In this document: one piece after another, positions 14,211-64,000 of the stretch
Numbering within the stretch: the first letter of the stretch is position 1
How the letters are laid out: each line of letters opens with the position of its first letter
Source of the DNA: Psammoneis japonica
Taxonomy: Eukaryota
Assembly: GCA_008632985.1 (NCBI GenBank)
Contig: QPGO01000136.1
Span: 62,001-126,000 of the forward strand
Reading direction: 5' to 3'
DNA: 64,000 nucleotides
Position numbers and translations under genes: made by a program
The notes under the pieces: model-generated
Told to the model about the DNA's origin: nothing
Seen by the model: the letters and a program-made list of their open reading frames with translations, nothing else
Databases searched by the model: none

Positions 14211-14269
14211 CACTGCCACCAGATCTAGCACAGGTTGCAAGTGATGAAAGAGAAACTGAAAATTGGCAC

Positions 14270-20809: not shown

Positions 20810-21251
20810 CGTATACTAAACTACGCATTATGATGACCGTTGTTCTGAGTCAAAGAGACAAACAATAACAACAATGAGAGCACGAGATCAGAATGAGAAA
20901 CTGATGATGTGCTGGGAAATAAAGGAGATGAAAGAAGAATCATACAGTTATGATCAGAATTTTGGAATTTTGTAATTTTGTAATTTTGTGCGTGGGAGAA
21001 TCCGTTTTTTTTTCCCAAGCGGTCGACAGACGATCCAAATGAAGTCTGATTGTGATTCGGCATATGTGCTTCAAAAGATCCAAAGAAACGCTATATTTAT
21101 CAATATTAATACATGAATATTGATAATTCGATATCGCACCTTGTGCTTCCAAAAAAAAAAAAAGAAAGGATACTTAGACTACTCTTATTATTAGTAAGAG
21201 TAAGACGCAACATATTTTTATCTCTGTTGCTGCTGTTCGACTCTGTACACA

Positions 21252-22133: not shown

Positions 22134-22662
22134 AGGTGTCCAGTTTAGCTTACTGCACTTTTACTATTCCTGACGGATGCCACAGTAAGCAAGAGTTGGG
22201 TTTCCTTCTTTCATCTCTCGGGAAGCATCCGAATGCCACAGCATTGATAGTCAGTAGTCAACGCTGCAACGAGGAGCATGAACGCTCGTTTGGATGCTTT
22301 TCAAGAGTAGTCCCACATTTCTTTGGCCAAAGTGCAAGATGTTGCAGACACTTCAACCGTACAGAAGATGTGGTTTTTAGTAACTGTATTGTAACATCGG
22401 TTTATTCTGACCCTGTGGTAACATGATTACGCCCCTGAAGGTGTTCGAGTGGACGACTTTGCAGGCAGGAGGAACATTCAATTCAGTCGTTCCGAGTGAG
22501 TGCGGGCTGTCTGCGTGCTGGTATGGGCACATTTGCGTCTCACGATGCTGGGGACCGATGGTCTCGCATCACTGCCGCCCTCGACTTCAAACAACAAAAT
22601 CATTCAAATTCAAAAACCACTGATCAGAATTATCAGTGCATTCTTTGATCAGAGTCTCACAA

Positions 22663-22841
22663 NNNNNNNNNNNNNNNNNNNNNNNNNNNNNNNNNNNNNN
22701 NNNNNNNNNNNNNNNNNNNNNNNNNNNNNNNNNNNNNNNNNNNNNNNNNNNNNNNNNNNNNNNNNNNNNNNNNNNNNNNNNNNNNNNNNNNNNNNNNNNN
22801 NNNNNNNNNNNNNNNNNNNNNNNNNNNNNNNNNNNNNNNNN
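22663..22841. other. Assembly gap (N run)
   Basis: Run of n characters. Confidence 0.99.
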
Positions 22842-34764: not shown

Positions 34765-36556
34765 TTAATCACTTCTTTCCATGTCCAAAAGGTCCATTGG
34801 TTGGTATGGCAGAGAAACATTCTCAGGCTTGACCAATATGTTCTTGTTTCCATCCTGCATCTTCACGGCATATCGTCCCTTCCCGCTGTTGTAATTCAGA
34901 ATAGTACCAACCTTGCCGTTCCAGTGAGTAGCGGAGGCCAAACCACGGACCAGAACTTCATCATCTGAGTCAAACACAACACACAGTTTGCAGTCCTCAT
35001 CATGTCCAAGCTCGCGGTGCTCGCGCTGGCATTGCAAACTACAATAAGATAAAGCCCTACATGCGTTGCACTTCATACCATTAGTGCCATCACAAGCATC
35101 ACGTGCGCCCATCATGGCACATTCTTCCTTTACCTCATCCAGCAAATCAAGATGATCTTGCCACTCTTTCTTTGTTCTGTCGCCACTACTGACAGCCTGT
35201 CGAGCCCAATAAGCGGCAAGAGGAATTGGGCTGTACGAAGGCATCGTGATGTAATCGTAGAGTTCATATCCACGGATTATTAATGCCTTTGACAACTGAC
35301 ACTGTGCGCGTTTGAATCCGTGCTTTGCTGCCTTGTCGAACCAGCAAATGGCGCCATGCGCAGGACATGTCGACTTGAGATTGCCTTGCACAATGTGTTC
35401 GCCGAGAATGCACTGGGCTTCGGTGTCACCTTGCGCCGCGGCGAGCGTGTAGTGCCGCAACGCTTTCTTTAAATCAACTGGTCCATAATTTCCAGAGGAG
35501 AACATGTTCCCGGCCATGAGTTGCCCAACACTGTCACCCCCTTCGGCAGCGAAGGACATGAACTCGCGCGCTTTCTCCGGACAAGGTGCCACGCCGTCAA
35601 ATGCGCCCACACACAGGGCTGCAAGATCCACAAAGGCACTGGGATCACCCTTGTCGGCTGCCCTGTGAAACCATTCCAGTGCTTTCTGGCTGTCTTGATC
35701 AACCTCTGTAGTTCCATTGAGGTGTTCGCGTGCAACGTGGACCATCGCCCAAGCCTTTCCATTTTCTGCAAAATCAAGCCAAGCTCAGTGAGGTTCAGGG
35801 TGGATGCTCATGAACCTCACACCCACTGGCTTTCTGCAAGCTGGGCAATTGCGAAAAGCAGAGTCTAACGAATGAGCAACCTTTGCTTTGCACTCAAGAC
35901 AGAGCCGTGCTCCACAGCAAACAGTCGTCCCTGACAAATGAGGTTTCTGTCGGGTCCACGAGCAGTTGCACCCAAAGGCATGAAATCGGAACAAAATGGA
36001 CATGACATGTTTTCATTGTCGAAATTGCGGTTGGATGCATAAAATTCATTTCGCCACTTCTGCGCCACCGTTTGAACTCGCAACTCCTCCGTTCCAACTC
36101 ATCCCTGAAGCCTCCGAGCAGTTTGCTTGCTCGCGCATCTCCGACAACATTGTCATTGCACTTCGCTCCGGATCTTACAATCTCCAGATGGCTCATTTCG
36201 GATTTAAGTCTTTCAATGGACTCTTTTGTTCTTGGCCAAGAAGGCCCCTCGATTCGTTTTCGCAGTCGTTCCATCGACTCATCAAGAGTCAAAAGCTCAT
36301 CCGCGCCAGACATGGAACGAGCCCCACTGCTGGCCCCACTTGAGTTCTGCCTCTGTCCACCACCATGTCTTCTCGTGTGTCCCTGGTCTCTCACACATGC
36401 TTTGCATCGTCCACGAAACCCCTTTTTCCACTGACTCGAGCTGCAATTTTCGCGATCGAGATTTGCGCTGCATTGAGAGCAACGTCTGGTGTTGCCAACG
36501 TTCCTGTCATTCTGACAAACAGCAGGCGGTTGCGCCTTGGCTTTTAGTGTCAGCAC
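34765..36556 (-). CDS. Sel1-repeat / MYND zinc-finger protein with N-terminal Cys-rich fingers (frameshifted)
   Basis: KALEWFHRAADKG, KALRHYTLAAAQG and WFDKAAKHG repeats. MYND motif C..C....YCS..CQ..H...GH...C. Upstream ORFs carry CxxC motifs. Confidence 0.72.
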
Positions 36557-38468: not shown

Positions 38469-39233
38469 TCATTGCTGTTTATTTCTTGTCCTAATCGCCG
38501 TTGACACGCTTACTCTACCATTGCTAAAGCTTGGCAAATCAAATGTCCACTCTAAACCAACATCTGCCCCAACATTGGATAGAAATTCCTTGGTAGAAGT
38601 TGGAAGCCGATAACTAATCAAGAGATAGATGCCGCCGTGCGACAATACCCGAGCAGCCCCTTCGAAAATACGGGTGAGCGGTGTATTCCAGCCTTCTCCG
38701 CATAATATTGCATCAATCAACCCCTTATCCAAAATGGCTTGATATTCACTAGGAACATCAACATGTTGCTCTGCTTCTCGAAGCAACACCTCCTGGAGTT
38801 CGGTGGCATCGCCACACACGTACTTTAGTCTCTCACAATGATCCCCATACCGTTCCAGCAGGTGATCAAGACAAGTCTGAGACGTATCTAGACACGTCAC
38901 GACGGAAGCGTTTGTATTGTCGTGTAACAGTTTTGGTACCTGTGAATTGCCGCATCCAATCACGAGGCAAGACGATTGTTTCGGCACATAGTGATCCACA
39001 ACGTCAGCCAGCGGTATGGACGCATGCCATTCAGTCTGATCATTTCCCTCAATCTGATAATACTTGTCCCACCCCAATGGAGACGAAAAGTCAAAAGCAA
39101 AACGATGTGTCAGTTCTTTTGATTTTGGTGAAACTGCTCGAAAAGCTGCACTTCGGGAAGTCAAGCACAGTGTGGCTACTAGCAGCCCATGTCCAACGAG
39201 GAATTTGATGTTCTCTTTGGCAATAGTTTTCAT
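38469..39233 (-). CDS. Class I SAM-dependent methyltransferase (EEF1AKMT4/METTL13-N-like), possibly plastid-targeted
   Basis: W..YY, LVIGCGNS, DAT and ILDKGLIDAILCG motifs. N-terminal hydrophobic stretch ending SAA-F. Confidence 0.8.
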   Translation of the reverse strand: MKTIAKENIKFLVGHGLLVATLCLTSRSAAFRAVSPKSKELTHRFAFDFSSPLGWDKYYQIEGNDQTEWHASIPLADVVDHYVPKQSSCLVIGCGNSQVPKLLHDNTNASVVTCLDTSQTCLDHLLERYGDHCERLKYVCGDATELQEVLLREAEQHVDVPSEYQAILDKGLIDAILCGEGWNTPLTRIFEGAARVLSHGGIYLLISYRLPTSTKEFLSNVGADVGLEWTFDLPSFSNGRVSVSTAIRTRNKQQ

Positions 39234-39519
39234 GATCTTCTTCGCTTCTTTTCTGTTTTGGTCGTTTGTCAGCAGCAGAGTGTTTCTGATGCCATAAGTT
39301 GTGGAGTCACTGTTCAATGCGAGGAATGTAATGGCGGTGAGATCCATGCGATCGGCATTCGGCATCAACAACATTGGGATCATCCGCCCCCCGCCCCCCG
39401 CATTGCGGTAGGGCCCTAAATTCCAAAATCCAAAATGCGCCACCCGCCATGCATGAAGGCAGGGAGGGAAGGACAGACTGCCGGGGTGTGTGAACCGGCC
39501 GGCCGGATAGATCGATGCA

Positions 39520-42500
39520 TCGATGTGGTCGACTTCTTTTTCCAAAAAGTCTCTGATGAGTGATCCTTTTTTTGTGAAGGAGAGCACCAAATCGTTGGCT
39601 CTCGAAATCCTTTTTGGAAGAAAGCAGACAAAGGCTGGTCTTTGAAAGAAAAAGAACACAGCAGTGTGCAACCATGCTGAGTTGCCAGAGTCGCGCCTGA
39701 CACTGACTAAAAGGCGGTGATCGCATCAAGGCAGGCTGGTGAGAAGATGTTTTGACCAAAAAATCCTGTCATGATGAGGCTTGGTGCACAGATTCCTCTC
39801 AAGTGCCAGATGTTTTGAAAACAACGGCAGTTTTGTTTTGGGCATTGGACATGGGCTGTTTTGGAGCTGCTTTCGCTCAATCGCTCAGCTGCCAAAGGGA
39901 ATCACCAGCACTGATGTGTGGACTGTGTGGCATCATTGTCACAACTGGGGTGCCTTTGTGATGGGAAATTGGGGATTTGACTGGATTGAAGATGAGCCAA
40001 TTTTTTTCAATCTTTGCCAGAGCATCAGAGCGCGCATTGTGGTGGTTTCCACTTTCCTTTGTAAATTTTTTAATGTGCGTTGTCAAAATTGTTAACAACC
40101 AGAATTTAAAAAATGCCAGCAAAGGTGCTCAACAAAATGCAGCTGTTTTGTGCATTTCATCTGATGTCTCATCAACGTTTCTTGCACAAGCTTCAATCAA
40201 ATGCGTGCAATGTTCTGTTCAATGGGGGTCGAAATCCACATTTTGTGGTGCATGGTTTGGTTTCCTTTTGACTGCAATCAATTTGAACTTGGTTTTAACT
40301 TTGTCCTCCTCACTCACGTGCATGTGTCTTTGCATGTGTGCAGTCTGTCACTGCACATGCAGTGCTCAACGCACGCACGTGACCTTCATTTTTCTTCATG
40401 TTTCCCAGATTTGCGCAGCCCGTTGGTCTGCGGCATTTTCAGCATGTTTTTTACATGCGCATTTTTCCACACACTTCACAACAGCACACCCTCTCCCCAA
40501 AATTTGAAAAACAAGAGCATGTGCTGTTGTGATTCACATGGATCCTGCATGTGGTTGCAAATCTGCAAATCCACAACAACCGGCCATGGCGGTGAAAGAC
40601 TTTGCCCCACTGGCCAATGACAGCAGCTCAACGCATGTGAAGCCTGCTGTCCTTCTGGTTGGTTAAGATGGATTTTGACTGGGGCACAGCTTGAGTTTCA
40701 TGATTGCGAGTGTGCTGTCACAAATCTGCCGCATCCAGAATGCTGAGCTGCTGGCGTGTTGTTTTGTGCACGCACGTCACAAATTCACTCCCATGTTGCA
40801 CTCTTGCAACATGTTCTGCTCTTTTTGGTGATGAGTGAGGTGGAACAGAGCAGCAGCAGTTCAAACAATGGAGCAGCAGCTCCTGCTACAAACTCGCCCA
40901 CTCCAGAATCAGCGGCGCCTGATTCACCGGTGAGTCTGTGTTGCTGTTCCTGTTGGCAGTGTCAGCTCATCTGCACTGTGCTCTCACAATGCATTCTGCA
41001 CTTTTTTTGGCAATGAACAAAGTGGCTGCCAGCAGTGGCACTTCAAGAAAGCAAGCTGCAACTGCTGCTGCAAACTCCAGGGTGTTGTCTCCTTCAGCAT
41101 CATTCAGTTTAAATGCAGACAACAAAATGGAATGTTCATGGTGCAGTGCAAATGATTTTAATTTACAAGTTTTGCAGGGATGGAGGGTGGGCACTCTCAT
41201 GGGGAAAACATGTCCCTGTTTCACAGCAAAAACAGGGGGTCTGATCCCACAGCATAAAAATGTTTGTCTGTCACAGTTGACATGTCATTGCCAGCTGCAC
41301 AACTGTCAAGGTTTGAAACAACAGAATTTTGTGCTGCAACAGATTAAAAAATTGCTGTGAGAAAGGTGGTCTGGATCAGCGCTGCAATGCACACTCTGAC
41401 AAGAGGGCTCAACTTCTTGCTGGCATTTCTTCATGTCAGTTGTTGTTGCCAGCATGTCAGCACTCTCAATTTGTGGAGATGCAGGGTTTCTGTCAGCTTT
41501 GTCTCTGAGGTTGGCCCACTGGGTGTGGGGCTCCAAAGATCTTTGAGAGGAGCTTGTCCAAGTTTTTCTTTTGGAAAGAACACAGGAGGGCACTCTTTCC
41601 AGAGTTGGCATCAGAAGCCAAGCTCACTCATCTCAAAATGGCACTTTTTTGCTTGTTTGTGCACATGATCATGGCCTGCCTTCTTAGAGAAGCAAACAGA
41701 AATCTGTTGAACTCTGAGCTCCACAGAGGCAACAAAGTGGTGCTCTCAATTGTCAGCGCAGCAACGTCATCTTTCAAGAGAGAATGAACATGTTTGAAGA
41801 TGCCATGGCCATTTGCAGACATGCTTTACACTGGCCACCAAGTGTGTAGATTCTGCTTAAAAAGTCCTCACAAAAAGCCCAGACATGTGGAGAGAGACAG
41901 CTTCTGCAAAAAAAGAGGAGCAGCAGGCAGCTTTTTGTTTGGCGCTGAGTTTCTGCATGCTGTTGTTGAGCACTCCACTCAACTGTGCCACTCTCCATGT
42001 GGCTTTGCACAGAAATGCCAGAAAAACATCTTGCAGCAGATCTCTCATCCAAAGAAAAGCTCATTTTGCTGCAAAACAAGGCCTCCAAATCAAAGCACCT
42101 TTTGATTGCTGTGATGTCTGCTGCAGCATGTCACAGATTGTTGTCCTGCTGAGTTTCTGCACATGTGCCACAACTGAACATGCTGCTCAAACATGACACC
42201 TTGTGGCTTCCCAAAGCCAGCAACTCAACTGGTCCCATGAGAACCCGCATTTTGCACCAGTGAAAGCAACCCCCGGGTTGACGTGCGAACGTGGAGCTGC
42301 GACCTGTCCTTGTTTTTTTTACACGAAGGCCGAAGGGTCACGCACACCAAGCAAAAACTGCAACTTTCACCCCCCCCCCCAATCGAACTGTCAGAATGTG
42401 CAGTGCAGCAGGGAGTCGGTTGAAAGTGCATCGGCGGAAGTCGCTCGCACGCTCGCATGCAATGCCAGATCGCATGTAAAACAATCAGGTGGGATGGACA

Positions 42501-45470
42501 TTTCTGGTCGTGTGATGTCCGTGTTGTCGATCCGTTGTGAACTCACTTGTTGCCCTTCGTGTTTTGTGTCTACACAGGCACGAACACACAAGATTAAAAA
42601 AACTCAACGGACGTTGAAAATCTGTTGAAACTTGGAAGTTTCAACAAAAAACTGTTGAAACTTGGAAGTTTCAACAAAAAAATGTTGAAACTTTTTTCGA
42701 GTTGTTGAAACTTCAAAGTTTCAACAGATGTTTTGTTGAAAGTTTGAGTTTCAACAAAAACACTTTCAACAAAAATTCACAAAAACTGTTGAAACTTTCA
42801 GACTCTACATTGCATGACGTCATCCACCAGTGGCGGCTACACGCGAAATGGGAAAAGTGCAGCGGCGAGCCAAATTCAAGCTGACACTGCGCGATGACGC
42901 AAACCGCCTCGAAGCAGTGGCGGTGTTTCTCAACGCCATGGCGAAACATCCTGAGAGACAAGCAAAGTTCTTGATGTGAGCATTGAAAGTCACTTGACGA
43001 GACCAAGCCCGGCTCTCAGCTTCTGCTGTGGGTCCCGACATGCCGAGCTTTAGCGGTCCTTGTGGCGCCAACTGCGACAGCGTCTTTGGCATTTTCCACG
43101 GAGTTTCAGAGCGGCATCAGATTCGCAGAAATGATTTTTTGCACCAGCGCAGAAATCCACCTGTGTTTCTGGCACATGAAATTCATGCCGACATCAACCT
43201 TTTTGCGATCTTTCGACAATGGCGGCGTTCTCGGTTCGCAGCTGTTGCGCCACTGATGCCGCGTCAATTGTCGCAAAACCTGTGGCATGTCACTCATCAC
43301 CCTCTTCTCAGTTCATTTTTTCCCTCTGACATTGCATCTTCTTCGGCCACAATCTCGAATTTCGACAGCATCAACACAAGGTAAAAATCCAAAGCGGGTG
43401 CCAGTTGTTTGTTGGTTTTTGACCCCGCGCTTTTATTTTGAACGCCCACCTGAAACAGCGTTTTGCCTTCTCTTTCACTTGATCCCCCAGGGTGTCATTC
43501 TTTTGGGCTGCAGTCGTCTGGGGAGCCATTCGCTGAGGCCATGAGCCATGAAGCTTCTGTTGAAATCTTTCTGTTGGGTGGAGATCACTGAACACGGTGA
43601 CTGCCCTGTTGGGTGGACATTCCGACTCATTTCAAACATTGCCAAAGGAATGAAACAAGTCACCCAGTTTCTGTGTTTCCTGTTGGAGACTCAAATGAGC
43701 AAGCTGCACTCACAAACACTGCGGTCTGCTTCGAAGGTAAGATCAAAACATCCGACTCTGCTTGTTTGTCTCGTGGAATGAGATGTCTTCTTTAGACAGC
43801 TCGAATTTAGAGCCAACAGAAAAATGTAAAAAACACTTTAGAGTGCCCCATTGACATCACAACAGTTTCATTTTAGAGACAGGAAGGAGTGCCAACCATC
43901 AATGGCAGCTCAGCAGCATCACAAAGCCATCGGAACGGGCTCGGTTTCAGAGCTGAGATCTGCGTTGATCCACTTCGTAAAGAGCAAAAAACAGCACCAC
44001 AACTCATGGACTCATGGATGGTTGATTTACATCAGAAGCCTTTTTCACAACAGTTGCAGGAAAGGCACAAGACAATGCGATCATCGTCAATCCAGGGTGA
44101 GTTCACCAATTTTTGTGATCGAGTGTTCTCTTTGTGATGTCACGCACCAGAAAATGTCGTGAAGTCCACACAGAAAACGGAACACCAATTTGAAGCTGCT
44201 GCTTTGTGGCCAAAGTGAGCTCACCATTTGAAGCACATCTAAGAAACGGTCACTCCAACAAGCAAAGTGAAGGGCTGTGGAAGGTGCTCCAAATGCCACA
44301 GCAGTTTTGATGTTGTGGCAACATCTTGAAACTTGCAGCTCTGTGTCATTAAGTGGGATTCCGCAAAATCTGCGTGTCACGCACAAAAGCAAGGAATTTT
44401 AAAAATGTTCGAGGTTGATCGAGCTCCGAAATGATTGGTTTGGATTTTAGTCGCACAAGTCGAAGCCAATGCCACTCGCGCGTAGAGCTGAAACACCGTG
44501 TTTCTCGCGGTGTTTCAGAGCGGCATTGGCTTCGTAGAAATGATTTTTTGTGCCAGCGCAGAAATGTGCGCATGTTTCTTGTGCATGAAATTCATGCCGA
44601 CATCAACCTTTTTGCGATCTTTTGACAATGGAGGAGTTCTCGGTTCGCAGCTGTTGCGCCACTGATGCCACGTCAATTGTCGCAAAACCTGTGGCACATC
44701 ACTCGTCACCCTCTTCTCAGTTCATTTTTTCCTCTGACATTGCATCTTCTTTGGTCGCAATCTTGAATTTCGATGGCATCAACACAAGGTAAAAATCCAA
44801 AGCAGGTGTGAGTTGTTTGTTGGTTTTTAACCCCGCACTTTTGTTTTAAATGCCCACCTGAACAGCATTTTGCCTTCTCTTTCACTTGATCCCCCAGGGT
44901 GTCATTGTTTTGAGCTGCAGTCGTCCGGGGAGCCATTCGCTGATCGCTGAGGCCATGAGCCATGAAGCTTCTGTTGAAATCTTTCTGTTGGGTGGAGATC
45001 ACTGAACACGGTGTGACTGCCCTGTTGGGTGGACACTCCGACTCATTTCAAACATTGCCAAAGGAATGAAACAAGTCGCCCAGTTTCCGCATTTTGAACA
45101 AGCAAGCTGCACTCGCCAACACTGCGGTCTACTTCGAAGGTGAGATCAAAACATCCGACTCCACTTGTTTGTCTCGTGGAATGAGATGTCTTCTTTAGAC
45201 AGCTCGAATTTAGAGCCAACAGAAAAATGCAAAAAACACATTGGAGCGCCCCGTTGACATCACAATGGTTTTGTTTTAGAGATGGGAAGGAGCGCCAACC
45301 ATCAATGGCAGCTCAGCAGCATTGAAGCCATCGGAGCGCACTCGGTTTCAGAGCTGAGATCTGCGTGAATCCATCATTTCGTAAAAGAGCACAAAACAGC
45401 ACCGCAACTCATGGACTCATGGGTGATTGATTTGCATCAGAAGCCTTTTTCACAACAGTCACTGGAAAGG
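39520..45470. other. TpA-depleted (CpG partly depleted) hypermutated block 3
   Basis: TA is rare throughout. CG is rare at 40.5-42.2 kb but retained at 42.2-45.5 kb. The signature fades over 45.5-45.9 kb. Confidence 0.85.
42612..42800 (+). repeat. Array of GTTGAAAC/GTTTCAAC palindromic units (left)
   Basis: 22-bp hairpin units separated by short A/T runs. Confidence 0.9.
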
Positions 45471-45905
45471 CAAAAGACGATATGATCATCGTCAATCCAG
45501 GGTGAGTTCACCGATTTTTGTGATCGAGTGTTCTCTTTGTGACGTCACGCACTAGAAAATGTCGTAAAGTCCACACAGAAAACGGAGCACCAATTTGAAG
45601 CTGCCACTTTGTGGCCAAAATAAGCTTGCCATTTGGAGCACATCTAAGAAACGGTCACTCCAACGAGTAAAGTGAAGGGCTGTGGAAGGTGCTCCAAATG
45701 CCACAGCAGTTTTGATGTTGTGGTAACATCTTGAAACTTGCAGCTCTGTGTCATTAAGTAGGATTCCGTAAAATCTACGTGTCATGCATGAAAGTAAGGA
45801 ATTTAAAAAATATTCGAGGTCGATCGAGCTCCGAAATAATTAATTTTGATTTTAGTCGTACAAGTCGAAGCTAATGCCACTCGCGCGTAGAACTGAAACA
45901 CCGTG
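43097..45905 (+). repeat. Two tandem ~1.4-kb units (43097-44500, 44506-45905), each with its own CACGG.GTTTCAG...CTGAAACACCGTG inverted ends
   Basis: The units align along their whole length. Terminal inverted motifs ctgaaacaccg/cggtgtttcag and cgaagccaatgcc/ggcattggcttcg. Confidence 0.85.
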
Positions 45906-46019
45906 TTCGTTCTACCTCCCGTCAATTCGTCTGCTCTACCTCCTGTCAATTCGTCTGAATTGACGGTGACGTCATGAAGTTTCAGACATTATGGTGATGA
46001 CATCGTGGTGACGTCAGAC

Positions 46020-46186
46020 AGTTTCAACAACGACTGTTGAAACTCAAAGTTTCAACAACTTTTTGTTGAAACTTGGAACTTTCAACAAAAAATCTGTTGA
46101 AACTTTTTCGGAGTTGTTGAAACTTCCAAGTTTCAACAGTTTTTTTGTTGAAACTTCCAAGTTTCAACAGTTTTTTGTTGAAACTA
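46020..46186 (-). repeat. Array of GTTGAAAC/GTTTCAAC palindromic units (right, inverted relative to left)
   Basis: gttgaaacttccaagtttcaacagttttttgttgaaac is the reverse complement of the left-array units. Confidence 0.9.
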
Positions 46187-46617
46187 TCGCCAATTTTTCG
46201 GCGAAAATGACTCTTTTTAATCAATAATATGGATTAGCTATACTTATATACGAACAGAATCACTATATATTATTTGTATATATATGTTGAGCATTTGCCT
46301 AATTAACGTCTATGCACATTGTGAGCACGCATATGATACATATTGTCATGAATATATTCATTCAATCACGAATATGATATTCATTATTCTGGTTTCAACA
46401 GATTTGAGGCGACTCCCAGTTGAAAAATCTTCACTATCTTGTCGGGTGAGTCGAATTGATGTACACCACCGGTGAGTCAATGATGTTTTATGAAAAGCGC
46501 TACCTGGCATTGGTTTTACAAAATCATTAATGTCATGAATTACACTATTACACATTCACTTTCTTTTCTAGAGTTGGTCACACTTGTCGACTCTCTAGAG
46601 TGAGTCTACTACCGGCA

Positions 46618-49411
46618 CTACCGTTTTCCACCCTTGCCCTTGCCTTTGGACTTGGATTTATCCTTGGACTTGGATCCATCCTTAGACTTGGATCCACCCT
46701 TGCCGCCCTTGGACTTGCTCGGGGACCCATTTGAAGGGCATTTATTGAGTCTACAACGGCTGTTCACACCCTGCCATTCGCCTTTACAAAGCCTTTCGGT
46801 GGTAAGTATGCAAGTTCTGCCACCATCACCTCTGCTCGAGCTTCCACTGCCGCTGCCATACCAGCTGATGAAGCCTAAATCCCTGTCCCTCATCCGGCTC
46901 TTGCTTCCCCCCTTGGACTTACTGCTACTTCCGCCCTTACTCTTGCTTCCGCCCTTGCTGCTACTTCCGCCCTTGGACCTCCTGAAGCCCTTGCTGAAAC
47001 CCTTACTCCTGCTTGCTCTATCCGGGACAGCAATGCAGCATGCACCAAGTATTCCTGGCGTCGGTGGCCGGGTTGGACGTGGACAAGTTAGGTCACGGCA
47101 TAGATTACCCCGACCCTGGTATCTGCCTCCCAACAACCTGCAGCTCGAAGCAAATTTAAGGTCCCTGCATTTGCCGCTCTTGAAACAGCAGCCACCGTAA
47201 AGTGACGGCTTTGGAGTAGGTGGTGGAGTAGGATCAATATCCAACGGAGTTGGTGCTGGAGTAGGCTTCGGACAAGTTAAGTCACGGCATAGATTGCCCA
47301 ATCCCTGGTACATGCCTCCCACATCCATGCACCTCTTTTCCTTTCTAAAGTTCTGGCATCTACCATTTTCAAAGCAGCAGGCACCGCGATCAGGAGTTGG
47401 TGGTGGAGTAGGATCAATATCCAACGGAGTTGGTGATGGAGTAGGCATCGGACAAGTTAGGTCACGGCATCGATTACCCAATCCCTGGTACTTTCCACCC
47501 AAAGCGATGCACCTCAGTTCCTTTCTAAAGTTCTTGCATCTGCCGTTTGAAAAGCAACAGGCACCGCGATCAGGACCTGGTGGTGGAGGAGTTGGCTCTG
47601 GAGTTTTGGGTGCAGCAGTTGGTTCTGGAGTTTTGGGTGTAGCGGTTGGTGCTGGAGTTGCGACCGGACAAGTAATGAATTTGCATCTGTTACCGGCGCC
47701 CTGGAACTTTCCTCCCAACGATGCGCACTTAGCGGGGTTCACGAGATTCTTGCATGCACCATCTTCAAAACAACAGCCACCGCCTTGGCGGGGAGGATTA
47801 GTGGGCTTCGGGGTAATCGGTGTCGCCGTTGGCTCCGGGGTTGGGGCAGGGCAAATTGCGTCATCGTTGCAGTCAGTCTTGTCACCCTGATAAATTCCAC
47901 CGTCGTTGTCGCAAGTGTCTTCGTCGACGTCTTGACAGGTCCCGTCTTCGAAGCAACATGCTCCTTCCTCAATATCCAAGGCGGTTGGCGACGGAGTCTT
48001 GGGAGCAGGAGTGGGAGATGGCGTGGGAGCAGGAGTGGGTGGACGAGTTGGACACGTAATATCGCTGTCGTCGCATTCAGTACCAGCTCCCTGATAGTCT
48101 CCGTCAGCTCTTTTGCACTGATTCAGGTTCCTCGTTGAAGTACACGAGCCATCAGGAAGACAACATGCCCCCGGTAAGCGCCGACAGCGAGCGTTGTCGC
48201 AGGTGCTTCCGTTGCCGTTATAGATACCTCTGAAAAAGTCGCAAGTGTCCTCATCGACATTCTCACCGCAACTTCCGTCCGGGAAACAGCAACTGCCGTC
48301 CGTCACGTCCAATGGTGGGGTCGGAGAAGGAGTCTTAGGCGTTGCGGTCGGAGAAGGAGTCTCCGGTGCAGAAGTCGGAGAGGGAGTCTCGGGTGTTGAA
48401 GTTGGAGAAGGAGTCTCGGGTGCAGAAGTTGGAGAAGGAGTGTCAGGCACAGGACCGGGGGTAGGAGACGGAGTGTCCTGCGCTGTACAAGAGATATCAG
48501 GGTCATCACACTCGGTACCGGGGCCCTGGAAATCACCATTGGCTTCTCTAGTACACCTCCTCCTGTTTTTGAATTGCTGACACGATCCGTCAGGGAGGCA
48601 GCAGGCTCCAGGCTTGACTGCGCAAACAACGCTAGCGTCTGTACATTCCGAACCAGCTCCCTGGTAGGTTCCTCTATCACCATCACACGTAGCTTCATCA
48701 ACGATGCCACAAGATCCGTCCGGGAAGCAGCATGCACCCGCCTCAAAATCCAATGGGGTAGGAGATGGTGTCGCTGCAGCACAGGAAACATCGTTACACC
48801 TTACTCCGCTCCCCTGCCATTCACCTCCGAATCTCCTGTTACAAACTCCTTCATTCCTGGTAACTCTGCACTCTTCTGTTTCGCGTATACAGCATGCACC
48901 ACTTTGCCCAACCGGGGACACGGTGGGGCTCGGGGAAGGCGAAGGCTCTTCAGGACAGGTTGCGTCTTCGTTACACTCAGTGTTCCCGCCCTGGAATTTT
49001 CCGTTTGCAGCAAGACAGTCGGCTTTGTTGGCAATGCCACAAGTGTTCCCGAGATCAGGAAAGCAACACGCTCCGATTTTGTCGAGCTGTACGACGTTTG
49101 AGAGTCCAAATGAACAAGGATAATTAGAATAAATCGACGTATGAAAGCACTTGTCCCTTTAAGTTTCATTCTTACCCCAGATTTCAAAGGGACGTTTTGT
49201 AGCTTCCTGGAATTTGTCTCTGGTACTTCCTCAGTAAGCCCTAGCTTTGCCGCGAGATCTGCAGTAAAACGAAAACACAAAAGCGAAAATGTGAGAAAAG
49301 AACACAAACGCCAATGACATTGATGCCAAGAAAATACCCGGTCCTCGTACCCGCGGCTTCGCAACAAGCTAGAGAGAGAAGGAGTAAAACTCCCTTGCTA
49401 ACGATCTTCAT
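46618..49411 (-). CDS. Secreted Cys-rich GACC-repeat protein with Pro/Thr stalks and a Lys/Ser/Gly-rich tail (candidate cell-wall/adhesive protein)
   Basis: Signal peptide MKIVSKGVLLLLSLACCEA at 49411, with 5' introns (e.g. ~49259-49337). More than ten GACC..DG.C...C...GG.YQG.G..C repeats. TP.PT repeats. C-terminal SKGG/KSK tract. Confidence 0.8.
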
Positions 49412-50627: not shown

Positions 50628-52625
50628 TTAAAGTCCCAGCTTTGCCAATTCATCCAAAAGACTCTTTTCATTGGCAATCTTTTTCTTTTGATCCTCATTC
50701 AAATCATCCTTGCCTTTGAGTTCTTCAATTTGTTTGAGAGTCTTTTTGATTTTTCGAGCTCGTTTTTCCGGATCCACTGGTTGTTGTTGTTGTTGCTTGG
50801 CGGCAGCAGCCGCCGCTTCTTCTTGTTGTTGTTGTTTGGCCTTGGCAGCCTTGAGACGTTCCTTGCGAGCAGCATTCTTCTTGCTACTCTTGTTGTTGCT
50901 GGATGATGATTCGGGTGCCATGCCTGGAATGACCTTTTTGTTGCCACCCACAATACTTTGAGACGAGGTCTTTGTGATTTTGGTGGCACCCATCATGGAC
51001 GATTCCTTTTCTCGTCTCATGCGTTCCGCTAAACTTGTGCCACTACTGGCTTTGCCACGTGCTCCGGGAGGAACATAACGACCCGCGGGTTTTTTGGGAG
51101 GAGGAGCTGCAACAGCGGTAGTAGCTGCAGTACTCTCATCGCCTACAGTCACACCCTTGGGTGGTGGACTCTGTGGTCGATCGGGATACACACACGTTGT
51201 TGCTGGCAAGAATTCGGCTTGCAACAAACGATCCGGTTGATACCATTCATTCTTCCACGGCAATTCTGCCGTCGATAGTTCTTGTCCATTGTATTTGAAC
51301 ACGCAAACACCATTGTCCACATTCATTCTTGGACTCGTGGTGCTGGAATAAAAGAGTCTCGAATCGGGAGACCATCCATATCCCACGGTACAATGCGCCA
51401 CGGGTTGCGGCAATTCAATCGTTTTTCCATTACCTTCATATTGTGGAATGACTTTGAGTTTATTTCGATCCCAAAACGTCATGCCACCCTGTAAATTCCC
51501 AAATCCAGCCAAACACACAAATCGTCCATGGGGTGACCAGGAGATGGTGTTGCGATGGGCATTGCCAAACAAAAAGATTGGTTCTGCCGTTGATCCGTGA
51601 TGGAGGGATGCCATGCTGGGCATTTTACCACTCTCAACACCAAAACACGGTGGTTTGGATGGATTGGGCATCCATGCTACATTCAAGACGGGGCCATCGC
51701 TGCTATTGTTGGGAAGTGGTACGGCCAAGACGTCCTTGGTGGTAAACAAGTAGAGTGTGGCGGATCCATAATAGGATTCACCCGTGGTATCGACACTGGT
51801 TTGCATCGATACGAGTGCCGAATCGCCACGGGGAGACCAATGGACGGCCACGTCTTCGACTTGATAGAGACTCTTGGAAACAAGTGCGGGATACCCTTGT
51901 GGGTTATTGCTGCTTGTTTTGACTGCTGCTTGGCATGGATATTGCAACAACGACACTCGTCCCGGCTTGTCCTTGGTGGTGGGAACAAAGACGGAAAGCA
52001 AATAACTATCGCTAGTAGTAGTAGCATCCGCAACCTTTTCTGGAACCGACATGCTCACGACACCCTGACACCGCATCTTGTCAATATACCGAACTTCTTC
52101 TTTAGAAGAAAACGCATTGCCCTCATAGACTCGTACTTCATTGGTGGCCAGCAAAAAGGCATACCGTTCATCATGAGTCCATTGAATATAGGGCCACGCG
52201 TCTTTGCGAATGTTTTTTTGAACAAAGCCACATTCCAATTCGCCAGAAACAGCATTCCAAACTTTGAGATTGAATGCTTGATTTGGATTGAGCTTTTCCC
52301 ACGTGAGCAAATACGTGCCCTTGGGACTGCAACACATGAAGGATACCTTTTCCGAGTTTTGCAAAAAGGGTTTGTTTGGAAGCCGTGTCGATTGTTCCAA
52401 ATCACACTTGATGACACCCACACCAGCTTGATGAATATACGCATACTTTCCATTGGGTGAAATGACTTGGAGCGTTGTCGAACCCTTTAGTAACCAATTT
52501 CGTTCTTGTAGTGGTGGAGAGGGAACATTGTACAACTCCACACCATCTTTGGAACGCAACAACATTCGACATGGTGGAAGAGTAGTAGTAGTAGTATCAG
52601 CGCTGCTTTTTGTTGATGACGACAT
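50628..52625 (-). CDS. EIF2A: Eukaryotic translation initiation factor 2A
   Basis: VDTTGESYYG, RNTISWSPHGR..LAGFGNL.G.M.FWD, TTSPRMNVDNG and YVPP motifs. C-terminal coiled coil KK.L.QIE.LK. Confidence 0.95.
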   Translation of the reverse strand: MSSSTKSSADTTTTTLPPCRMLLRSKDGVELYNVPSPPLQERNWLLKGSTTLQVISPNGKYAYIHQAGVGVIKCDLEQSTRLPNKPFLQNSEKVSFMCCSPKGTYLLTWEKLNPNQAFNLKVWNAVSGELECGFVQKNIRKDAWPYIQWTHDERYAFLLATNEVRVYEGNAFSSKEEVRYIDKMRCQGVVSMSVPEKVADATTTSDSYLLSVFVPTTKDKPGRVSLLQYPCQAAVKTSSNNPQGYPALVSKSLYQVEDVAVHWSPRGDSALVSMQTSVDTTGESYYGSATLYLFTTKDVLAVPLPNNSSDGPVLNVAWMPNPSKPPCFGVESGKMPSMASLHHGSTAEPIFLFGNAHRNTISWSPHGRFVCLAGFGNLQGGMTFWDRNKLKVIPQYEGNGKTIELPQPVAHCTVGYGWSPDSRLFYSSTTSPRMNVDNGVCVFKYNGQELSTAELPWKNEWYQPDRLLQAEFLPATTCVYPDRPQSPPPKGVTVGDESTAATTAVAAPPPKKPAGRYVPPGARGKASSGTSLAERMRREKESSMMGATKITKTSSQSIVGGNKKVIPGMAPESSSSNNKSSKKNAARKERLKAAKAKQQQQEEAAAAAAKQQQQQPVDPEKRARKIKKTLKQIEELKGKDDLNEDQKKKIANEKSLLDELAKLGL

Positions 52626-53026
52626 GGTTTATAATATGCTCTTGTGTGGTAAAGACAAAATCACAGGACAACAACTCTAACGACACTTCGTTTCTCAAGA
52701 TCAACACGTTGTGGTTGTGAGAAAGAAAATGAGGGGAGCAAAAAAACGTGAGGTCATGAACGAGCCTGTCGACTCATTGGACTAAACATATATAATTTCT
52801 TCATATGATATAGAATGAAAAGCGTGGCTTGCTCGCGCGCACGTGTGCGTGGTACTGTATGTTGAAGCAGAGCGCTTTCTTCAGTTCTTCAGCATGACAC
52901 AATGATGCCCGTTGCCCGTTGTGTGCACATGGTTCTCTGATTGTTGCTACACTGGTTGTTATCGTTGATGTTCCACCATGGCACACGAAACTTCCATGAC
53001 TCTTTCAAAATGACAACGACGACAAC

Positions 53027-58830: not shown

Positions 58831-61639
58831 TGACCGTATGTGCGACTACAGTCTGAGGTCAATCAGAATTAGTTGAAAGGTTGCCTCGACAGTTATCATG
58901 AAGATTAGGGCCTGCGATGGCATGAGCGCCTACTTGCGCATTAGACGTTGCTTTTGCTTGCTGCGTTCCTCTGTCATCCGATGTGTTGTGCTGGCCACTG
59001 TCTTGAGCGCCAACGACGGAACTGTGGTGGAGTGAGCGATGACATAGTTAAAGAACTTTCATTTTGAGGACCCCGTGAGCGTGGCGTTGATCTACTAGCC
59101 TTCTTCTTCTCTGCTACTTTCAAAGCTTCTGTGTCGGTCTTGTCGTTCGTTGCTACATTGACAGCGTGCAGAGCATTTGCCGTGGCACATTTCCCTCGGA
59201 GATACGTCATCATATTTACCCACACGATCCCATGCCTCAGCGGTGTCTGAGTTTGTGCCTTTGTTCATGGCAACAACTTCAAAGCAAAGGGTGTTACAAT
59301 TCTGAGCAGAAGGCACATGTGGAAGTTTAATGCAGACACCAACGTACATGTGCGACCGAAAGTTACATTCGCATTTTTAAGTTGTTGGAAGCACCGGTGG
59401 AGGCGAATGCCTCCTGCATGATGTCCCCTGATTTCCACCTGCCCGTGTGCATGGCAACCCAACAAACATCACATGCAGGGCTTCAGTGCTGGACAAGCTT
59501 CTGATGTGTGTTTGAAACAAGAGAGCTTTGTGTGAGACACTTCTTTCCAGGCTGTTGTTCTTTTCACCTGAGCAGAGCTCATCTTGCTCCTTGTTCTTGT
59601 CAGCCAGTGCACTCATGGAAGAGGTGTTTTGTGCCTGTTTCTTGAGAGAGTGCATTGGAAGAACAGCAACTGTGATTGCTGACACCCATGCTCACAAAAG
59701 AGCTGCTGCCCCATCTTGCAGTTGTTGGGTTGGCCAACTCTGCTGGGCACAGAGCAAATTGCCACACACAGGGAGAAAAAGTGTGCAAAAAAGCTTTTCT
59801 TTTATTTCTGGGAGGTCATCCTTTGGGTGCATTGCTGAAAAAATGAGGTCTCTCATGCAGACAACCTTTTGTCCTCATCAGAGACAATCTGACATCACTG
59901 GCTCTCACAGTGTTTGACCTCACTCTCTTTTCCAAAATGCAGCTGCATCATGGTTGCCTCCCACCAGTCAAACACACAGCACTTTTTTTCTGTTTCTGAG
60001 GATCTGCCCCCTGTTTGCACTCCAACAGCAGCATCAGGGAGGCTCAGGCCACTTGCAACGGCTTTGGCAAACAACTCCTTCAGTGCCTCTTTTTTCTGCC
60101 TCTTGTGCAATGCTCTCAAGAGAGCTTTTTGTGTGCAAGACCAAGATTTTTTCCCTCCTCAAGCCCTTGTGCTTTGCCCCCAGGCAGAGATCTTCTTGCT
60201 TGTCAGCTGGCACACTCATTGAATGTGTTTTGTGCCCATTCATTTGAGTGTGTGTGGATGAGCCTTTGGCGCTGTCTCCGGACTTTCTTGCAGAGTTAGC
60301 TGCTGACACCCATGCACTTCTTGCACAGAGAAAAGAGCTGTCTTCCAGCTGCTTGGTTGGCCAGCTGTTCAAAGCACTTTCTTTTTTCATGAGAAACATT
60401 TTTTGAGATTCTGGAGGCCTTTAATTGCTCTTGTCTTCTGGGGTGCTTTTTTGCTTTTCTTCTTTTTTTGCCAGACTTCTTTGCACTGCCAGCTGTGCCA
60501 CCTGAGAACTGTGTCATGTTTGAGCTCACAGATGATGAGCTCAAGCCAGCAATTTCTGCCACACTGCACATGTCTCAAGTGTTTGACAATTGCAAACTGA
60601 GTGTGTGGGTGAGACTGCCTTGCAAGCTTCAAGAAAGGAGTCTTTGCAGTGCCGCACTGCAAAAAGGAGGAGCCACCCCCCTTTTTTGACTGCAGAGGGT
60701 TTCTCCTTTTCTGCTCACTCAAAAAGCTGCTCTCTTGCCACAGGCTTGATGATCAACAAACACACCAAAAAAAGTTTGAGAATGCAAACAAACACCCGCT
60801 GCCTTTTTGCACATGTGGGCAGTCATCCTCTGCTGGCGGCACTGTGAAGTGTGGTGCTGGTGCCCCATGCCGGCGCACACAGGTTTGCCTGAATGTCCTC
60901 AGACAAGAAAAGACAAGGAAACAAGATGTGAGGAAAAATTTGTTGTGGCAATTTGCTGCACAGCTGCAGCTGTCCTGGTCCTTTGATCCACCAGCAGCTG
61001 ACTTGTCCAGAGCCCATCCACCAAAATGCCTTTTTAAACACTGTGTTCAATGAGCAAGACAGGCACCGTTGGGGACCATGTTCTCAGCATGATTGCTCCA
61101 CCTCATCTTGCTTTGTGCCATCATGTTTTGCTCCTCACCAAGATGTTGCTGTGGCACATGCAAGCAATGGCTTCAACAACTTTGCAGCCCATTTTCCTGT
61201 GGCAAAAATTGCACATCTCTTTCACACATTTTCAAGTCTCCTCCCCAATTGTTTTTCCATTGATGGCAAAGCGTTAAACACCGCTGGGCACAGGGGCACA
61301 TGAAATGCACAAGGGAAAATTGATTGGAAGTGGCATTCCAAGGCTTCTGCACACATGAGAAATGAGTTTGTCACAGTCGGGGGCCACAAATCAATCGCCG
61401 GCACGCTGTTTTCACGCGCAAAACACGGCATTTTATGTGGCACTGTGTGGAATCAGCACCAGTTTCACTGCAGAAAGAAATGCCATGTGTGGCATTGTGG
61501 CACTTGTGTGGATGATCACTGCCAGCTGGTGGAGAGTGGCGAGTGCAAATGAAAGCAGCACAATCCGCGTGCGATGTTGATGACTCTTTTTTCCTCGTCT
61601 TCTCCCTGTCATCATAAAAACAATTGTTTCAACAGCGAA

Positions 61640-63150
61640 TGATGTCAACTCGCCGTCGCCCCAACCCTTTTGACTTCAAGTCAATTGCACTTGAAACTGT
61701 CTCCCTTGTTGGAATGTTTGGACAAGATGAGCTCCTTGGGGACAGAGCTTCTCTTACGGATTTGAGAGCAATTGGTGAAAAGGCCGCCTTTTTGCCCAGA
61801 ACGGTGTTTGTTTGGACCGAAATGCAGACTGTGTTTTCGGAATTGTTGAAAAAAGATGCTGGCAAAAAGCGCGCACTCATTGGCAGCCCCGGAGTTGGAA
61901 AATCCACGGCATTTTTCTTGGCAGCCCTGCACATTGCAGCAGTGAAAAGAAAACAGGTTGTCTGCATTCGCTGGGCTGCCGAAGAGCAACCCCCACAGTT
62001 TTCCTGATCTGCCCAGGACAACATGATGGTGCTGTTTGCATGGGATCACTCTCCTTCACGAGGTTGCGCTTCTCCCTCAAGGACATTGCGTGGGCCGCAC
62101 TGGATTTCGGCTGTGAAACAAACAATGAAAGCCAGCAGCACTTCCTCGATGGGCCCAAGGAAGTGCAAGCAAAAGAACTCGTCAATCTTGACTGCCATTT
62201 GTGCATGTCAGGAGGATGCAGTGCTCTGTCCAATGCTGAATGGATGATCACCCACATTGCCGTCATGAGTGGATCGACTGAGTGTGATCTCATGGCAGCC
62301 TCAGCTAATGTGAAGAATGTCAATTCGAACGAAGCAAAGAAAGTGTGCGCTGAGTGTGGAGGGCGAATGCGTCTGGCACTTGATCATTCAAATGATGAGG
62401 CGGCAATGATTTCTTGGGCTGATGGCATTGTTGCGGATCTGTCAGAGAGTGCATGTGCTTTGGCAATGATGGAGTCAGAGTCTCGAACATCTTTTGACAG
62501 CAAAGACAGATTGCGGACCATGTTCAGGAGAAGCAGTGGGCGACCTCTTCAACTCGTGGATTCACAGCATTTGCTTTCAAAGCTTCGAGACCGCTTGACT
62601 TTTTGTGACTTGCAAAAAGCTTGTGGAGTTGCCGAGGCACTGGATTCTCGTACGATGATGGGAGTCCTTTTTGAGGAAATCATGCACAACTGGTTTCAAC
62701 GAGTCAAGCCGACCCCGGCATCCAGGGTTTTGCATTCCCCTGGGGGGGAGACAGGAAAAGCTGGTGCCGCAGACCTGTCCAAAGAGCTGGCCTGCTGGAG
62801 TCCAAGTGTGCCAAACTTTGCCAATGTTGGTGCTGCGTTTGTGGACAAAGCAACCGTTCTGCATTTTTTTTGTGCCCAGTGTGCCACAAGTGACTCTCAC
62901 GAGTTCAACGCCTTGACGTTTGACACGGATTTCATCCTCGAACTGAAAAAGAGCTTCGTCAAAGGATTCCAAGAGATTGTGGTGTGTTTCACAGTTCCAT
63001 CTGGGGTGATCTTTGACGTTGAGGCACATGACGCTTTTGAGTGTGACAACGACTCAACAACCTGTCGGTTTGAGGTTGTTCATTTGAAATTCAGCAATGA
63101 CAACAAAATTGGTGCATTGGCCAGCGCCTTTCCCTTCTTGTCACAGGAAA
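61640..63150 (+). pseudogene. Hypermutated Crinkler/RHS-type P-loop NTPase + REase-like effector gene
   Basis: Walker A LIGSPGVGKS, FLDG, GG..R.A and G.LFEE.MH. C-terminal CWSPSVPNFANVGAAFV...Q.....H.F resembles CR-REase 'YW.P..PNF..ID'. Frameshift near 62000. No Tyr in the 471-aa ORF. Confidence 0.65.
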
Positions 63151-63419
63151 AATTCTTGGGTTGCAGAGGTGCGCACGCTGCAGGCCGTGATTGTGAATGT
63201 GCCCACAGATCTGATTGCACCAAATGAATGTGATGATGAAGAACAGATGGCAGCTGTCCGACGCACTGACAGAAAGGCGATGGAAGGATGCAGGCTGTGC
63301 TGGACTGGGGACTGAGTGAGACATGGGACTGTCTTCCAATGCCCTCCCTCGAGATGGAGCCAGTTGATTCACAATGATGTGAAAAAACTTGCAAGATCTT
63401 GCAAACCTTGGAAGAAAGT

Positions 63420-64000
63420 GCAATGGAGCACATTCCGTCAAGATTCTGAGCTCCTGCCACAAGAACATTGCCATCGTCAGACAAACTCAAGTGACCATCA
63501 CCAAGGTCACTGGAACTGCCTCGCCTGACAACATTCTGGCCATGCTGAACCCAGCTGCTTCCATCAAGTTCGCACACTCGGACAAATGCCTGAGTCTCAA
63601 CCGCCAGCATCTGATCCAATGGCTCCAACAGCTAAATGCAGACCTGTCAGCAGAAAGTTCTATGCTGGCACCATGCCAACTTTCGAAACTCTCTCTGTCC
63701 AGGTCTTGACCGCGCTGCTTCCAACTGTTGTTGTCAAAAGTCAAAAACTTTGACCCATCCAAAACCGTTGGCACCCCAAACGATTCCGACGGCGACTCTA
63801 CGTCCAGTGGAATCAAATGCAATGGATCGACATCAAGGGCAAACTCGCCCTCCAGGTCCTTACCAAGTTGGGTCCATTGGCTTCTAAAAGGGCAAATCCG
63901 AGCATGTCCGGCGTCCAACCTTCCCTGAGGATCGCCGAGGTGGGCAGTCATGGCCATGGCATGTCCGGTGCTAGACAAAGCCACGGCCCACCCAAATTCA
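63420..64000 (-). pseudogene. Hypermutated paralog of the FG-GAP-like gene at 57708-58830
   Basis: 63920-63997 aligns to 57739-57817 (ttccctgaggatc.ccgagg.gggc...aaagccacggccca.ccaaat). W.Q.G.D..G and LS.DG..L..GA blades. Confidence 0.8.

Follow-up and report, generated by a model that had tools for sequence, protein, structure and literature searches.

Sharp-edged domains of TpA depletion in a diatom genome window, one edge of which crosses a tandem pair of transposon copies, point to a local hypermutation process

Why are two adjacent copies of one small element both poor in the dinucleotide TpA (TA below, with CG, TG and CA used likewise) along most of their length, while over the last few hundred base pairs one of them keeps TA where the other reads TG or CA? 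The question is raised by a tandem pair, unit 1 and unit 2, in a stretch of 64,000 nucleotides from the diatom Psammoneis japonica (NCBI GenBank assembly GCA_008632985.1, contig QPGO01000136.1, positions 62,001 to 126,000 of the forward strand), which we call the window and number from its first letter. The answer that we consider probable is a local hypermutation of TpA to TpG or CpA, acting in kilobase-scale domains with sharp edges, the older cores of which also show CpG decay. The sequences analysed were this one 64-kb window and the contigs of one public DNA run, which is possibly the assembly's own sample. The two units are the following:

43097-44500, + strand: unit 1, a copy of a 1.4-kb element with 13-bp terminal inverted repeats (CACGGWGTTTCAG), wholly within a TpA-depleted domain (basis: alignment and termini)
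44506-45905, + strand: unit 2, a second copy with about 90% identity, its first ~975 bp within the domain and its last ~425 bp outside (basis: alignment and termini)

Both units start with CACGG(A/T)GTTTCAG and end with the reverse complement of this motif, and, being bounded in this way by terminal inverted repeats (TIRs), they are two adjacent copies of a 1.4-kb element and not an anonymous duplication. The element matched no family in a Pfam scan, and no match was obtained in an Rfam scan of positions 39000-47000. An earlier reading of these letters, made without database searches (the sequence-only reading), had named mis-assembly or the merging of two haplotypes as a danger, but the tandem is genuine: direct-repeat families spaced 1401-1416 bp cover positions 43092-45683, and the junction between the units is bridged over 44325-44613 by a contig with no differences at a depth of 36.4, the single-copy flanks showing 35.9-46.3. 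Given the possible origin of the run, this last result serves as a consistency check and not as independent support.

Global alignment of 43092-44500 with 44501-45910 gave 1428 columns, with 37 gap columns and 119 substitutions (99 transitions), 84 of the latter being switches among CG, TA, TG and CA. Along the whole alignment, unit 1 carries TG or CA against TA in unit 2 at 19 sites, and the opposite was found at five. All the asymmetry comes from the 3' part: between unit-1 positions 44148 and 44467 there are 14 sites of the first kind and none of the second (two-sided binomial p = 1.2e-4), which reproduces exactly the count made by eye in the sequence-only reading, including its nine quoted examples, and this 3' part (14 vs 0) differs from the 5' part (5 vs 5) in a Fisher test (p = 0.006). 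As had been noticed, the two 5' parts are equally poor in TA (9 TA in 44501-45470 of unit 2 vs 10 TA in 43092-44060 of unit 1), whereas the 435 bp of unit 2 at 45471-45905 contain 20 TA, the density normal for the window, vs 5 in the corresponding stretch of unit 1.

TA is the ancestral state at these differing sites, and three tests agree on this. The first two make use of a second internal control found elsewhere in the window:

10846-14209, unstranded: mutated paralogue of 19101-21381, inside a depleted block
19101-21381, unstranded: unmutated paralogue of normal composition, which contains a conserved gene (open reading frame, ORF, 19068-20228, - strand) together with the beginning of a DUF92 gene (21204-22133, + strand)

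The pair is a segmental duplication that includes the conserved gene and the first ~180 bp of the DUF92 gene, and the copy at 10846-14209 is a ruined pseudogene with 71-90% identity to the intact copy downstream. The ORF 19068-20228 has 121 relatives at E<=0.001 (best 2.6e-28), and 21204-22133 was identified as a DUF92 gene with an E value of 4.6e-68. Comparison of the two paralogues revealed TG or CA in the mutated copy against TA in the normal one at 32 sites and no case of the opposite, the corresponding numbers for CG-type differences being 61 and 4. For the second test, ten outgroup proteins were aligned and the non-synonymous codon differences were scored: among 15 TA-type differences, the outgroups matched the normal copy in eight cases and the mutated one in a single case, with six ties, and among the CG-type differences they matched the normal copy in 19 and the mutated one in one, with 11 ties. 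As an example, codon 206 reads CAC in the mutated copy but TAC (Tyr) in the normal one, and 10/10 outgroups have Tyr at this place; in addition, the mutated paralogue contains five CGA-to-TGA stops.

The third test relies on the other copies of the element in the genome. The 3' end of unit 2 (45548-45731) is matched by contigs at a depth of 1093, vs 172-314 on the homologous stretch of unit 1. Among the best-supported 40 of 103 differences, those falling in 45548-45731 are at 45615, 45649 and 45661, where units 1 and 2 share a minority letter, and none of them is at a TA site; differences with support as low as 27 were included where total depth was ~590-690. This is the weakest of the three tests, absence from the best 40 of 103 not being proof. 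As far as it can be tested, then, the other copies match the version of unit 2, contrary to the possibility that the family consensus has TG or CA and unit 2 has gained its TA, and the one-way loss proposed in the sequence-only reading is supported by all three routes. The two 3' parts can thus be described as follows:

44140-44470, + strand: 3' part of unit 1, with TG (7) or CA (7) in place of 14 ancestral TA
45481-45905, + strand: 3' part of unit 2, of normal TA density (20 TA), matched in its version by other genomic copies

The 5' parts also carry the traces of loss, in this case in both units. At 17 aligned positions one unit has CA and the other TG, whereas 1.8 would be expected if only CpG ancestors had decayed. 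Such a discordance requires two transitions, or one per unit from a CG or TA ancestor, and its excess thus indicates separate decay of TA ancestors in the two units. Fourteen of the 17 pairs fall within the 5' 1065 columns, for which we estimated ~25 TA lost in both units, 10 in one and ~5 in neither; the implied ancestral number, ~40 TA per 1065 bp, corresponds to the density normal for the window, and the loss amounts to ~75% per unit. The units, therefore, lost TpA independently after they arose. CpG was much less affected, with 44 sites kept in both units, 16 lost in unit 1 and 10 lost in unit 2, that is, 14-23% of CG vs ~75% of TA.

To place these losses on the chromosome, the surrounding features are needed:

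39417-~45480, unstranded: TpA-depleted domain holding the units, with a TA spacing of 100-460 bp vs ~25 bp outside
40928-42246, unstranded: CpG-poor core of this domain, with 5 CG in 1.3 kb, and 1 and 3 CG per 500 bp in 41001-42000
42617-46185, unstranded: multi-copy element that encloses the units; its TGTTGAAACTT repeat arrays, inverted and subterminal, lie at 42617-42810 and 46027-46185 (basis: inverted repeats I1-I12, including 46 nt at 100%)
45911-45957, + strand: 24-bp tandem repeat in two copies, marking the place of the units within the outer element (basis: repeat search and contig joints)

At their 3' ends, unit 1 has lost 14 of 19 TA (74%, the same exposure as in the 5' parts) and unit 2 none of the 19. 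The domain continues uninterrupted across 42617, where the enclosing element starts, and ends within unit 2, leaving the rightmost 0.7 kb of that element outside, so its limits are not those of the repeat. Likewise, the intact paralogue at 19101-21381 remains untouched though it lies near its fully mutated copy. A homology-driven process such as repeat-induced point mutation (RIP) would treat both 3' ends alike and would also affect the functional paralogue, and neither was observed, which favours position over sequence identity, as the sequence-only reading had held. We infer from this arrangement that targeting is by chromosomal position, possibly by a domain of silenced chromatin.

On the other hand, the gradient proposed in that reading, a mutation load fading over ~45.5-45.9 kb, finds no support. 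The TA count forms a low, flat plateau (2-7 TA per 500 bp) from 39.5 to 45.5 kb and then rises to 22. A step model places this right edge at 45325-45720 (2-log-likelihood support), or at 45435-45665 when only unambiguous losses are used, and a logistic curve ~94 bp wide fits no better than the step. The other edges, at 10281, 39417 and 59378, are also sharp, and the four domains of the window have edges sharper than ~100-400 bp. The profile is that of a plateau that ends abruptly, and no gradient can be resolved in it. The TA-rich stretch at 46200-46400, which had been taken as the right end of the enclosing element, is indeed rich in TA (32 TA in 46001-46500) but lies outside the element, as its right inverted-repeat arm ends at 46185.

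The arms of the outer element show contig depths of 743 and 480-561, vs ~40 for single-copy sequence. Another run, X2, gave almost no coverage of the element. In the contigs of the first run, other copies of the outer element join 43096/43099 straight onto 45947, without the units. The units are small non-autonomous TIR-bounded transposon copies nested in a second element resembling a miniature inverted-repeat transposable element (MITE). Two contigs that match the unit from position 44525 onwards carry a telomere-like CCTAA-type repeat in front, and some copies of the unit family may adjoin chromosome ends. Immediately to the right of the outer element, an open frame of 846 residues (46618-49158, - strand) without a Pfam match, with internal tandem repeats of 18, 27, 54 and 180 bp, has its 3' end facing the domain edge.

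The main rival to targeting by position is that gene conversion by, or recombination with, an unmutated family copy has replaced the right ~0.7 kb, i.e., the 3' end of unit 2 and the right arm, which would be TA-rich just because it is young. The edge of TA retention (45481-45553) does coincide with the start of a high-copy stretch, the depth rising from 144 (45364-45547) to 1093 (45548-45731), so that donors would be many, and a MITE at 11423-11812, described below, is an example of young sequence that stays TA-rich inside a domain. However, at 45615, 45649 and 45661 unit 2 has the minority letter that it shares with unit 1 (~18% of depth, unit 2 included), and a random donor would probably have changed these letters. 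Moreover, the alignment is colinear and ungapped through the edge, and divergence outside pyrimidine-purine (YR) steps is similar on both sides, with 6 differences in ~360 columns at the 3' side vs 29 in 1065 at the 5' side. Conversion thus seems unlikely to us, although it is the alternative that survives best.

The depletion is not restricted to the units. A profile of TA, CG, TG and CA in 500-bp windows, in which TA and CG positions were also mapped, showed ~20 TA and 25 CG per 500 bp in normal sequence and 0-7 TA per 500 bp in the domains. The most extreme stretch, 12001-18500, presents 0-4 TA, 0-7 CG and 44-69 each of TG and CA per 500 bp. Apart from the domain that holds the units, the window contains:

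10281-19050, unstranded: second domain, with TA and CG both nearly absent
59378-63633, unstranded: third domain, with TA lost throughout and CG lost only in 59.5-61.0 kb
22430-24220, unstranded: fourth, small domain, adjoining an assembly gap (N run 22663-22842)
11423-11812, unstranded: unmutated 390-bp MITE in the second domain, with 25-bp TIRs (23/25 matching), CAGA on both sides, 28 TA and 29 CG

Observed/expected (O/E) ratios of dinucleotides were as follows in the old blocks and in normal sequence, the base composition (GC content) of which is the same:

TA: old blocks 0.05, normal sequence 0.58
CG: old blocks 0.12, normal sequence 0.94
CA/TG: old blocks 1.85, normal sequence 1.21
GC dinucleotide: old blocks 1.31, normal sequence 0.98
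AT: old blocks 0.78, normal sequence 0.96
AA/TT: old blocks 1.23, normal sequence 1.14

For the domains overall, O/E ranges from 0.05 to 0.10 for TA and from 1.53 to 1.85 for CA/TG. The loss of TA is wider than that of CG, with stretches at 42.25-45.5 kb and 61-63.6 kb in which TA O/E is 0.10 and CG O/E 0.68, and the CpG-poor core at 40928-42246 inside a wider TA-poor domain fits an older centre. Two elements of TIR type are among the mutated sequences, as is a duplicate of host genes. In a Pfam analysis of 138 block-derived open frames of at least 75 aa, no transposase, reverse transcriptase or viral family was detected, the only hits being sub-threshold chance matches and the neighbouring Sel1 gene.

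Three further observations concern the composition of these regions. In the largest hypermutated block, positions 14001-16000 have an A-over-T skew of 0.29-0.30 and an excess of CA over TG, with an excess of TG in the neighbouring 16-17 kb, which may reflect local strand bias, either of the process or already present in the sequence before it was mutated. At 35486-36545, 1 kb with only 5-6 TA and normal CpG overlaps open frames next to a Sel1/MYND gene; coding bias may explain it, or else a small domain of TA loss alone. Finally, long frames of the blocks, such as 61779-63227 (+ strand) and others of up to 482 codons, lie in TA-erased DNA and match no family; with TAA and TAG erased and TGA as the sole remaining stop, gene finders may call false genes in such domains.

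With regard to specificity, transition rates per base in the paralogue pair were 0.45 at TpA, 0.44 at CpG and 0.18 at TpT, with 0.07-0.10 in five other contexts. The elevated TpT rate was discarded as a real signal and treated as alignment noise in T runs, AA/TT not being depleted. Outcomes of TA loss were TG in 29 cases and CA in 27, in mixed order and without strand runs, which fits many single events and not one processive burst. The 3' neighbour of the changed A (n = 56) was T in 19 cases, C in 19, A in 10 and G in 8, thus a pyrimidine in 38/56, whereas kept TA had a 3' purine in 28/32 half-sites, and a 3' A is over-represented among the TA left in the domains (chi-square p = 1.5e-32). Surviving domain TA are mostly found in TTAA, CTAA or GTAA, and a multiplicative half-site model (mutability by 3' neighbour: T and C > G > A) reproduces ten context classes fairly well. 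Immunity of TTAA was considered and rejected, as its domain-wide survival of 0.89 is accompanied by the loss of 3/4 informative TTAA sites in the units; the weaker statement that a 3' A lowers the mutability of TA holds.

More tentatively than the targeting, we infer that single A (or T) bases of a T-A step are attacked strand-wise, the simplest and probable form of this being deamination of adenine in 5'-T-A on either strand, read as G at replication. The decay of CpG is probably a separate and slower methylation effect in the same domains, and its presence in the cores agrees with the methylation that diatom transposons carry at CpG. Put together, a local process would convert TpA to TpG or CpA, i.e., A:T to G:C transitions at TpA, in kilobase-scale sharp-edged domains, with the adenine of the T-A step being deaminated strand-wise to hypoxanthine. 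The domain would be targeted by its chromosomal position as silenced chromatin; within the domain (~39.4-45.5 kb), some three quarters of the TpA of each unit would have disappeared, independently, after the units had arisen, and the last ~425 bp of unit 2, past the edge, would keep the ancestral TpA. Older cores would also undergo ordinary methylation-type CpG decay.

A different chemistry could in principle leave the same trace, in the form of error-prone repair by polymerase eta (WA motif) after deamination of 5-methylcytosine, or of oxidised thymine (5-hydroxymethyluracil, 5hmU, or 5-formyluracil, 5fU, produced by a TET/JBP-type enzyme) mispairing with G. The two types of loss do share domains, a T-to-C change at TpA is the mirror image of A-to-G, so that the sequence does not tell which base was attacked, and mutagenic non-canonical mismatch repair with WA-motif targeting has been described (PMC4139959). 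Nevertheless, the units lost TA about four to five times more completely than CG, and in the chlorarachniophyte Bigelowiella natans the TpA signature comes with almost no G:C-to-A:T change, according to the main text of a preprint (bioRxiv 10.64898/2026.01.13.699255). Polymerase eta is unlikely in particular, since ApA is not depleted in the old blocks (AA/TT 1.23 vs 1.14 in normal sequence) while TA falls to 0.05. As for the thymine route, the literature listings contained no title or abstract on 5hmU or N6-methyladenine (6mA) in diatom DNA. We give these routes together slightly less chance than conversion, and keep adenine deamination as the preferred chemistry.

A RIP-like gain, in which C-to-T changes at CpA/TpG in the 3' end of unit 2 would make TA the derived state, is very improbable. 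The tandem pair alone cannot polarise the change, and diatoms possess DNMT4 enzymes, relatives of fungal RID with unknown function (PMC9998398), but the three direction tests all give TA loss, the 3' end of unit 2 has no excess of TA over the window-normal density, RIP should strike both copies, and a TA O/E of 0.05 in blocks elsewhere is the opposite of its effect. Equally hard to credit is an artefact, either a collapsed haplotype pair or base-calling errors at modified bases in a long-read assembly: in spite of the N gap at 22663-22842 and the possible identity of the run with the assembly's own data, exact contigs at a single-copy word depth of 36-46 cover the TA-poor 42789-43060 and 43231-43490 as well as the junction at 44325-44613, and indels and stop codons likewise separate the mutated paralogue from its partner.

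Several points weigh against the reading that we prefer, that of hypermutation aimed at chromosomal domains. The sample is a single 64-kb window, and the silenced state of the domains is deduced from the pattern of loss. The MITE at 11423-11812 is unmutated within a fully mutated domain, hence position alone does not ensure mutation and the time of arrival matters too. The process may have been episodic or finished at the second domain, or the MITE, which is missing from the paralogous site near 19618-19703, may be very young. Targeting of foreign DNA as such finds no support in the 138 block frames, and one of the targets is a copy of host genes. The flank preference for a 3' pyrimidine differs from the preferences of ADAR and TadA. 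In addition, other copies seem to agree with unit 2 at the discordant sites 45605 and 45627, beyond the edge, so that a palindromic ancestor is not needed for every discordant pair. Finally, the reading of the family consensus depends in part on differences absent from the best-supported 40 of 103.

One further gene of the window was compared with its relatives:

50628-52628, - strand: eIF2A gene, with 379 relatives at E<=0.001 (best 62% identity), the named ones belonging to Fragilaria, Nitzschia, Cylindrotheca, Seminavis and other diatoms

A metagenome scan with the eIF2A protein recovered four loci of 2-9 kb, none of them with a 500-bp stretch of <=3 TA, which is too little DNA to judge other diatoms.

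How does this process compare with known systems? RIP, known from Neurospora and other fungi, is also restricted to transitions and specific for a dinucleotide, ruins repeats and leaves a dinucleotide trace. Nonetheless, it makes TpA from CpA, while the process seen here destroys TpA, and it depends on duplication and mutates both copies, whereas here one copy, or part of one, is spared by position (0/19 at the 3' end of unit 2 vs 14/19 in unit 1). Fungal RIP was thus rejected, the TA O/E of 0.05-0.10 with CA/TG at 1.53-1.85 and the direction of change adding to the sparing of one copy. The decay of methylated CpG in transposable elements (TEs) also turns CpG into TpG or CpA, as in the domain cores (CG O/E 0.12), and diatom TEs are CpG-methylated (PMC9998398). 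Such decay alone was rejected as the explanation, because TA is lost where CG is largely kept (42.25-45.5 kb: CG 0.68, TA 0.10) and its loss is more complete in the young units.

Editing by ADAR and APOBEC enzymes likewise leaves deaminase-type clusters of transitions in mobile DNA, and APOBEC editing of retroelements has reportedly become fixed in genomes. These enzymes act on RNA or on a reverse-transcription intermediate and give one-strand runs, whereas the targets here are DNA transposons and the outcomes are strand-symmetric (29 TG, 27 CA). ADAR prefers a 5' U/T neighbour and a 3' G. Hyper-editing of ADAR type through an RNA intermediate was rejected, given the mixed order of outcomes and a 3' G in no more than 8/56 cases. 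The 5' U/T preference of ADAR is also cited in the Discussion of the B. natans preprint (bioRxiv 10.64898/2026.01.13.699255).

That preprint (Mettrop et al., bioRxiv 10.64898/2026.01.13.699255) was the sole paper with this signature found in our literature search, which returned no report of TpA loss in diatoms. Of the 302 nuclear mutations in mutation-accumulation lines of B. natans, 231 lay in two regions of integrated viral DNA, and 230 of these 231 were A-to-G or T-to-C changes, all of them on TpA. The rates were ~6e-7 per site per generation, ~1000 times the background, with hypermutation in some lines only, and the authors propose an ADAT2-like DNA adenine deaminase; diatoms, flanking context and CpG are not mentioned in the main text. 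A mutation process that removes TpA was thus first measured in 2026, in one chlorarachniophyte.

The window extends this signature to a diatom, a member of one of the main groups of marine primary producers, where it is near completion and runs alongside CpG decay. The tandem pair acts as a natural control, in which homologous DNA 1.4 kb apart lost 74% vs 0% of its TpA, and narrows the models towards chromatin domains, making homology or foreignness less likely as the targeting rule. It may even be, though we lean somewhat against so broad a claim, that TpA hypermutation is a DNA-editing genome defence common to distant algae of the stramenopile-alveolate-rhizarian (SAR) group, diatoms and chlorarachniophytes, aimed by chromatin position (domains that are CpG-methylated in diatoms) and not by homology or foreign origin. 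If this were true, positional targeting would have its first evidence at the sequence level in the edge within a duplicated transposon and in the ruined copy of host genes that lies close to the intact one. In practical terms, counts of TA and CG against TG and CA per 500 bp offer a statistic with which to scan the genomes of other algae for such domains, and gene finders should expect long false open frames there, because TAA and TAG are erased.

The likeness to B. natans, as far as the main text of the preprint allows the comparison, is close in several respects. In both cases A:T-to-G:C changes occur only at TpA and give TpG or CpA on either strand, they are found in discrete regions (which in B. 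natans reach past the recognisable insert), and the long-term trace is TpA depletion with CpA/TpG enrichment in clusters of windows, TE-type sequences being among the TpA-poor set. The activity in B. natans is not constitutive, which fits the unmutated MITE described here. The differences are also clear. Rates were measured directly in the chlorarachniophyte, whereas the diatom process is known from its fossil trace alone; TpA in the active region of B. natans is mildly depleted (rho 0.45), and here hardly any is left (0.05-0.10). In the diatom, TA loss goes together with CpG decay (61 vs 4 in the paralogue pair, CG O/E of 0.12 in the old blocks, weaker in the young units), in contrast to the near absence of G:C-to-A:T change in B. 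natans. Finally, the process strikes viral inserts there, and in P. japonica small DNA transposons together with a duplicate of host genes.

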